Shown piece after piece: positions 59,186-59,292 of a DNA stretch of 64,000 nt. The notes beneath the pieces are model-generated. The model had not been told where the DNA came from. It searched no databases and saw only the letters and a list, made by a program, of their open reading frames with translations. A program made the translations under genes and the position numbers. This DNA comes from Candidatus Nomurabacteria bacterium (GTDB lineage Bacteria; Patescibacteriota; Patescibacteriia; HK-STAS-PATE-3), in the NCBI GenBank assembly GCA_023898465.1, contig CP060223.1, forward strand, positions 288,001 through 352,000, written 5' to 3'. The first letter of the stretch is position 1; every line of letters starts with the position of its first letter.

Positions 59186-59233
59186 ATGCATCAACACATC
59201 CGTAATTTCAGCATCATTGCCCATATTGATCAT
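59186..59233 (+). pseudogene. relic 5' end of a lepA gene (16 codons [16 protein letters not shown]), then divergent sequence to a stop at 59287
   Basis: Encodes the same [12 protein letters not shown] as real lepA codons 8-19 (59314-59349). 8 of the 12 codons differ, all at synonymous third positions. Confidence 0.7.
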
Positions 59234-59292
59234 CCCGCTACCACTCTGTTTTTTTATCTACTAAGTAGGCGGGACGGGACTCGGTAATCTCT

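Follow-up and report, generated by a model that had tools for sequence, protein, structure and literature searches.

A truncated lepA start between murJ and intact lepA in a Candidatus Nomurabacteria genome: a possible scar of an integrated element

We examined the murJ-lepA junction in a 64,000-nt stretch of DNA from a Candidatus Nomurabacteria bacterium (GCA_023898465.1, CP060223.1, positions 288,001-352,000 of the forward strand), referred to here as the window. The source genome is a MAG of 1.08 Mb from a poorly sampled lineage. At this junction the first codons of lepA are present twice, once as a short truncated copy, which we call the relic, and once at the start of a complete gene. The features are as follows, in window coordinates:

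57546-59177, + strand: murJ (lipid II flippase), the upstream neighbour, from the ORF list and with a Pfam MurJ match on the identical Logan contig
59186-59233, + strand: fossil of the original lepA 5' end, 16 codons (ATG, reading MHQH, then 12 further residues), from the sequence and its translation
59186-59287, + strand: 33-codon ORF of the relic, opening at the fossil start and crossing the spacer as far as a TAA, from the sequence; translation by ribosomes putative
59228-59233, + strand: GATCAT, candidate crossover core on the attL side, the last bases identical in the aligned copies
59234-59292, + strand: spacer of 59 nt, presumed to combine a remnant of inserted DNA with the leader of the substitute start; unique in the window
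59293-59349, + strand: substitute lepA 5' end, 19 codons (ATG, reading MNSADKQ, then 12 further residues), from the sequence; ends in a second GATCAT
59293-61074, + strand: functional lepA (EF4), 593 aa with complete domains (Pfam GTP_EFTU, GTP_EFTU_D2, EFG_C and LepA_C)

The murJ stop codon (TAA, 59175-59177) is followed 8 nt downstream by the relic ATG at 59186. Past 59233 the relic frame reads PATTLFFYLLSRRDGTR and then meets a TAA at 59285-59287, which ends 5 nt before the lepA ATG. A first-pass annotation of this DNA had placed an ATG 8 nt past the murJ stop, followed by 16 lepA codons and a stop at 59285-59287, and had placed the functional lepA ATG at 59293 with the same 12 residues repeated at 59314-59349; all of these coordinates hold. 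The second GATCAT occupies 59344-59349. Joining 59233 directly to 59350 is, as that annotation proposed, in frame and restores AHIDH-GKST, and the break does sit inside the most conserved motif. The 12-residue motif occurs exactly twice in a six-frame translation of the window, and a repeat search at the junction returned a direct repeat of 44 nt with 75% identity and a spacing of 116 nt. The two start codons are surrounded by TCTATGCAT and TCTATGAAT, which have the context TCTATG in common. A database protein that matches LepA at 100% belongs to a Candidatus Nomurabacteria MAG and carries the annotation elongation factor 4. Just past the junction, within the lepA coding sequence, an imperfect palindrome (ATCGATC...GATCGAT, 59341-59374) spans the GATCAT core; its perfect 7-nt arms are 20 nt apart, and perhaps the ID/DR codons produce it by chance.

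Between the two 36-nt stretches encoding the shared residues (59198-59233 and 59314-59349) there are 8 differences, every one synonymous and at a third-codon position, exactly as first counted. If eight substitutions were random or neutral, the probability that all would be synonymous is about 1e-5 to 1e-6. Eight of the 12 codons differ, compared with 7.6 expected under independent codon choice, and the longest exact in-register run common to both copies, found by reading the sequences, is 6 nt. The N-terminal peptides in front of the shared residues are unlike in both sequence and length (MHQH in the relic, MNSADKQ in the working copy). As far as their codons can tell, the two copies are independent encodings of one protein segment whose synonymous sites are saturated. 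Because of this saturation and the different N-termini, we consider the two 5' ends to be of independent origin, and the earlier idea that the working 5' end came from a deeply diverged source is borne out by the 8 differing codons and the differing N-terminal peptide. A local tandem duplication followed by drift was rejected, given that there is no second copy of the spacer, that synonymous sites are saturated and that the N-termini differ. The relic has not decayed: its start codon and all 16 codons are intact, and so either the event is recent when set against the time since the two sources diverged, or the relic is under constraint.

Relatives keep the gene order DUF4012-murJ-lepA-bPH_2-divIC-rotamase. 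In six related contigs from five organisms, lepA starts at the murJ stop or overlaps it, and because relatives begin lepA there, we place the relic at the ancestral lepA start. This agrees with the first-pass view of the upstream copy as a fossil of the resident start, whose position matches the lepA start in the named loci L082, L083, L086, L087 and L088. The working start is displaced 107 nt downstream of the ancestral one. No second copy of the motif was found at lepA in any of 87 other loci, which comprised 80 more distant species representatives (L001-L080), scanned for the motif, and seven near-relative loci (L082-L088), whose junctions were read. In a search of 5.8 billion proteins the closest LepA was 68% identical and the closest MurJ 73%. 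One of the near relatives, L084, is a sister lineage as judged by the flanking genes. Between murJ and lepA its locus (GCA_043800725.1; 2499-3000) carries an ORF of 128 aa that is predicted to encode a membrane protein and matches neither Pfam nor PHROG, and this insertion may be a second disturbance of the murJ-lepA junction, either independent or inherited.

The 59-nt spacer occurs once in the window, and we therefore rejected the idea that it is a repeated mobile element. It contains no promoter-like (sigma-70-like) or terminator-like site that we could find, and the junction region has no Rfam match. The imperfect inverted repeat reported in the first-pass annotation exists (TCCCGCTAC at 59233-59241 and GTAGGCGGGA at 59265-59274) and has no detectable signal, the junction folding no better than shuffled sequences (z = -0.01). 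A 16-mer of the spacer, CGGGACGGGACTCGGT (59270-59285), has a counterpart, altered at two positions, in the L084 lepA leader (p ~0.002-0.004), and the consensus of the two, CGGGACrGGACTyGGT, is found nowhere else among the 88 loci compared. Homology between the spacer and L084 on the 5' side of the 16-mer is not significant, and the lepA codons adjoining it show no peak of identity to L084. Two candidate explanations were dropped on these grounds: that the spacer is homologous to the L084 insert, since only the 16-mer beats chance, and that a short 5' patch came from an L084-like donor, since there is no identity peak. We found neither a decayed relic in L084 nor a homologue of its 128-aa ORF in the window.

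The beginning of lepA is a target of mobile elements in other bacteria. The prophage Gifsy-1 integrates in the lepA coding sequence and leaves lepA function unchanged (PMC4632033), and lepA is among the prophage hotspots that lie inside coding genes (PMC3603311). In the GenBank record of Gifsy-1 (AF254761) the att core is annotated as ATCATTGCTCACAT, which encodes I-I-A-H-I. When phage genomes were searched by tblastn with an enterobacterial LepA N-terminus, the phages SPN3UB, SW-37, KK-2013 and Kpn_R1 were found to carry only LepA residues 1-15. In SPN3UB, an ATG and lepA start of 14 residues run into an N and a stop codon about 200 nt upstream of the integrase gene; no E. coli lysogens with the SPN3UB attP were found. 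A search of this kind that started from the window's own N-terminus gave, for the most part, full-length GTPases or host DNA within phage records.

In IMG/VR, all 73 complete matches to DNA encoding the 12-residue motif run on into GKST, and no truncated lepA copy that breaks after AHIDH was found there. With a pattern ending in ...AHI, however, 28 further viral or proviral contigs were recovered in which a lepA start leaves the frame right after AHI(D) and reaches a stop within 1-6 codons. These truncated starts (among L165-L193, for example L166/L139, L167/L157, L175/L107 and L179/L094) show at least five N-terminal contexts, and this variety would imply that they come from different host groups. 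Four proviruses hold both a truncated and an intact lepA, which differ at 2-5 of 27 nt, always synonymously, and have different leaders. In the one provirus checked for its neighbouring gene (L167), the relic has an ORF for a tyrosine integrase next to it. Numerous further proviral contigs stop precisely at an intact lepA. It seems that tyrosine-integrase elements broadly tend to target the lepA G1 codons, Gifsy-1 being one among them. Elements of other families handle their target genes in comparable ways. SXT/R391 conjugative elements and IMEVchUSA3-type islands, which use a tyrosine recombinase to enter the 5' ends of prfC and dusA respectively, restore the frame through a promoter and an N-terminus that are both new (PMC8409611; PMC2791158), while e14 and phage 21 in E. 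coli icd bring a duplicate gene end, so that a fossil gene fragment marks the other junction and the protein stays as it was (PMC3603311; PMC4632033).

Our best reading of the junction, which we hold with about an even chance of its being right, is that it is the att-site scar of an integrative element that was later deleted. A mobile element would have integrated by site-specific, Campbell-type recombination in the G1-motif codons of lepA, bringing its own leader and substitute first codons, so that integration rebuilt an intact lepA as with Gifsy-1, SXT in prfC and e14 in icd. The attL side would then have consisted of the cut-off resident 5' end, now the relic, followed by GATCAT and element DNA, and the attR side of the leader, the 19 substitute codons, GATCAT and GKST..., fused to the resident gene body. 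The interior of the element would later have been deleted, with 59 nt left behind; lepA is today expressed from the substitute start, and the relic is most likely inert, or at most a short upstream ORF. On this account, foreign origin is required of nothing beyond the leader and the first 19 codons. The anatomy, the ancestral position of the relic, the separate origins of the two 5' ends and the operation of this mechanism at the same codons in other bacteria are shown by the sequences; we infer the presence of the element here, its later deletion and any present function of the relic from the arrangement that remains.

This anatomy fits the footprint of a Campbell-type integration better than the whole-gene replacement that the first-pass annotation had favoured. 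A truncated 5' end stands at the native position, 8 nt past the murJ stop; a second 5' end, presumably derived from the element, follows in frame with a different leader; the differences between the two are synonymous only (8 of 8 here, and likewise the 2-5 of 27 nt in the four proviruses); and the break falls in the G1 codons of a known att core, two codons 3' of the Gifsy-type break. By our estimate, a random truncation in a gene of 1.8 kb would fall in the 36-nt stretch at about 2% of positions. The core shared at the boundary is shorter here (6 nt, GATCAT) than in the four proviruses (9-27 nt), and a match of 6 nt has a chance probability of about 0.2. A length of 6 nt is compatible with the overlap region of a tyrosine recombinase. 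No integrase-bearing element lies between the junctions, where there are only 59 nt, and a screen of about 43 of the window's 56 ORFs that reach at least 110 aa turned up no integrase, excisionase, recombinase or phage gene. For these two reasons we describe the locus as a scar and not as a resident element, and because no element is present this reading needs a second event, the deletion. We know of no lepA-targeting element from Patescibacteria.

The closest parallels are the lambdoid prophages of Gifsy-1 type that sit in lepA of Salmonella and its relatives (Gifsy-1 itself, SPN3UB, SW-37, KK-2013 and Kpn_R1). They insert into the same gene no more than two codons away, at the IIAHI(D) codons of the G1 motif; a leader and a substitute lepA 5' end come with the element; the truncated resident 5' end runs into element DNA and soon stops; and every difference between relic and substitute in the conserved codons is synonymous. 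The locus described here differs from them in having 59 nt in place of a prophage of tens of kb, with no integrase found, in its 6-nt core as against 9-27 nt, in the position of the break (after AHIDH instead of AHI(D)), in its Patescibacteria host, and in a relic ORF that continues for 17 codons into the spacer where theirs continue for 1-6. SXT/R391 and IMEVchUSA3-type elements likewise target the 5' end of a conserved gene, prfC also encoding a translational GTPase, but they have other targets and integrase families and are present and mobile, whereas here no element is left and the leader has no sigma-70-like site. With e14 and phage 21 in icd the locus has in common integration within a coding sequence, a duplicate gene end and a fossil fragment; there, however, the 3' end of the gene is involved and the prophage is still in place, while here it is the 5' end.

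The first-pass annotation had suggested that an incoming, diverged lepA allele replaced the resident gene through one crossover inside the motif. Part of this stands, namely the diverged 5' end and the relic of the resident start; replacement of the whole gene is not shown by the LepA and MurJ trees, which neither support nor exclude a foreign allele over the full length. A single homologous crossover in the motif is not supported, because it would leave no duplicate and because in-register runs of at most 6 nt are too short for RecA. By its flanking genes the nearest relative of the window is L084 (identities of 74% for MurJ, 55% for bPH, 48% for DivIC and 58% for rotamase), whereas LepA ranks L084 last (63%, against 68% for L082). 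Neighbour-joining (NJ) bootstrap analysis paired the window with L084 in MurJ in about 100% of replicates. In LepA, it excluded the window from the other five taxa in 90% of replicates and gathered all six into one clade in 100%: LepA belongs to the same six-taxon clade and lacks the L084 pairing of MurJ. Likelihoods were compared over fixed topologies with BLOSUM62-derived rates, gamma and RELL. For MurJ, the pairing of window and L084 was favoured (combined RELL 0.93). For LepA, a tree without that pair was preferred (RELL 0.81), and species topologies were 8.9-10.9 lnL units worse, with standard errors of 6.3-10.5; the disagreement between LepA and MurJ trees thus amounts to only about 1-1.4 SE, and the LepA of L084 is long-branched. 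The recombination breakpoint or mosaic predicted along LepA was not visible in a comparison of low power, the closest relatives being 63-68% identical: no segment of LepA switches its nearest relative, there is no peak of nucleotide identity, and quartet counts contain few informative sites.

These results bear on the main rival, which gives the first-pass idea a mechanism: one-sided (homology-facilitated) illegitimate recombination (PMC3240628), in which a linear foreign lepA with 59 nt of upstream DNA would have been anchored by homology downstream and joined at its other end after codon 16, which would make the gene body foreign either entirely or in its 5' part. We regard this as possible, if on the unlikely side. 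It needs a single event and no remnant of an element, and scars of this kind can look like the present one, with one side of the foreign DNA attached at an arbitrary position and, possibly, a truncated resident start ahead of the incoming copy (PMC3240628). The failure of LepA to pair with L084, as MurJ does in the NJ bootstrap and as the bPH, DivIC and rotamase identities do, and the preferred likelihood tree without that pair, mildly favour a foreign gene body and speak against an integration scar. The incongruence is, however, not significant at about 1-1.4 SE, and it involves a long-branched L084 sequence. The mechanism predicts a foreign gene body and no preference for an att core, and neither prediction is confirmed here: LepA has no mosaic or second breakpoint, and no donor or parental allele appeared among the 5.8 billion proteins, where the best LepA is 68% identical, or in two scans of JGI metagenome contigs, one for the 16-residue parental N-terminus (0 matches) and one for the leader motif ahead of the lepA G1 motif (0 matches). 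The anchor would moreover need a long tract of near-identity, and the alleles are synonymously saturated wherever they can be compared. Illegitimate recombination also gives no reason for a break at the codons of a phage att site, and we favour the integration scar because the break falls in the codons used by lepA-targeting elements. An assembly error, whether by joining strain variants or by skipping a real element through an internal repeat, is very unlikely. The source is a MAG, and although the Logan assembly of SRR12358675 is identical to the window at all 7055 nt, both assemblies may share the same reads. Still, no repeat was available for a mis-join: with exact in-register matches between the copies limited to 6 nt and a spacer that occurs once in the window, a false join of the copies in a k-mer graph is improbable, and the lepA that results is intact and coherent.

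However it arose, the relic might be kept by selection as an upstream ORF (uORF) that hands ribosomes arriving at the murJ stop on to the displaced start of lepA, thereby keeping the translational coupling of murJ and lepA that relatives achieve by overlap. Termination-reinitiation through the relic is conceivable from its spacing, 8 nt past murJ and 5 nt before the lepA ATG. Besides the start codon and 16 intact lepA-derived codons, another 17 codons stay open up to that point, and both starts share the TCTATG context. As there is no promoter-like site between the two genes, lepA probably depends on the murJ transcript. Shine-Dalgarno sequences at the usual distance are rare in this genome (5 of 44 crude gene starts), which would suit coupling; as an argument about coupling at lepA itself, the Shine-Dalgarno sequence was set aside as uninformative in a genome that seldom uses it. 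In the relatives L083, L086 and L087, GAGG or GGAGG precedes lepA, and in the window many starts lie in C/T-rich contexts (...CTATG or ...CCATG). Against a selected uORF, 17 codons would stay open by chance in about 45% of cases by our estimate, coupling would not require a LepA peptide, the intactness of the relic would follow just as well from a recent origin, and the junction has no structure signal. The first-pass alternative of a conserved regulatory uORF or leader fails on the same comparison, the arrangement being absent from all 87 other lepA loci. We therefore think selection for the uORF improbable. Equally doubtful is a combined reading, in which undescribed elements of Patescibacteria home to the lepA G1 codons with a substitute start and the relic has in addition been co-opted as a relay uORF coupling lepA to murJ; were it true, the 16-mer common to the window and the L084 leader would be a conserved piece of the element's leader. 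Programmed bypassing, with take-off at the CAT of 59231-59233 and landing at the CAT of 59347-59349, 116 nt downstream, is scarcely credible. The GAT CAT codons do match at both sites, and a hairpin directly follows the first, but matched codons are an automatic by-product of duplication and the hairpin is no more stable than shuffled sequence. Furthermore, the take-off CAT is followed by CCC where bypassing of the T4 gene 60 type has a stop, the downstream part has its own ATG and full conserved N-terminus, which makes a bypass needless, and the arrangement is conserved nowhere among the loci compared.

If the junction is indeed an integration scar, targeting of the lepA G1 codons with a substitute 5' end reaches beyond Proteobacteria into the Candidate Phyla Radiation, and small, streamlined genomes keep legible footprints of integration after the element has been lost. 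The relic opens no new mechanism and bears on no long-standing question; it would be a known phenomenon in an unusual host. In practice, fossil starts of this kind can lead gene callers astray over where lepA truly begins, and can also serve as markers of past mobile-element activity.

Two other places in the window are worth recording. Two adjacent, slightly overlapping genes (35578-37155 and 37146-38741) both encode full-length cofactor-independent phosphoglycerate mutase (iPGM_N and Metalloenzyme domains), and this tandem pair of paralogues sits in a glycolysis gene cluster with PGK and enolase. At 49388-49951 lies a 188-aa ORF whose match to the MFS_1 transporter profile is confined to the first half (it covers positions 10-166 of 347) and which may be a truncated transporter gene; it adjoins the RNase P RNA gene (50618-51030).
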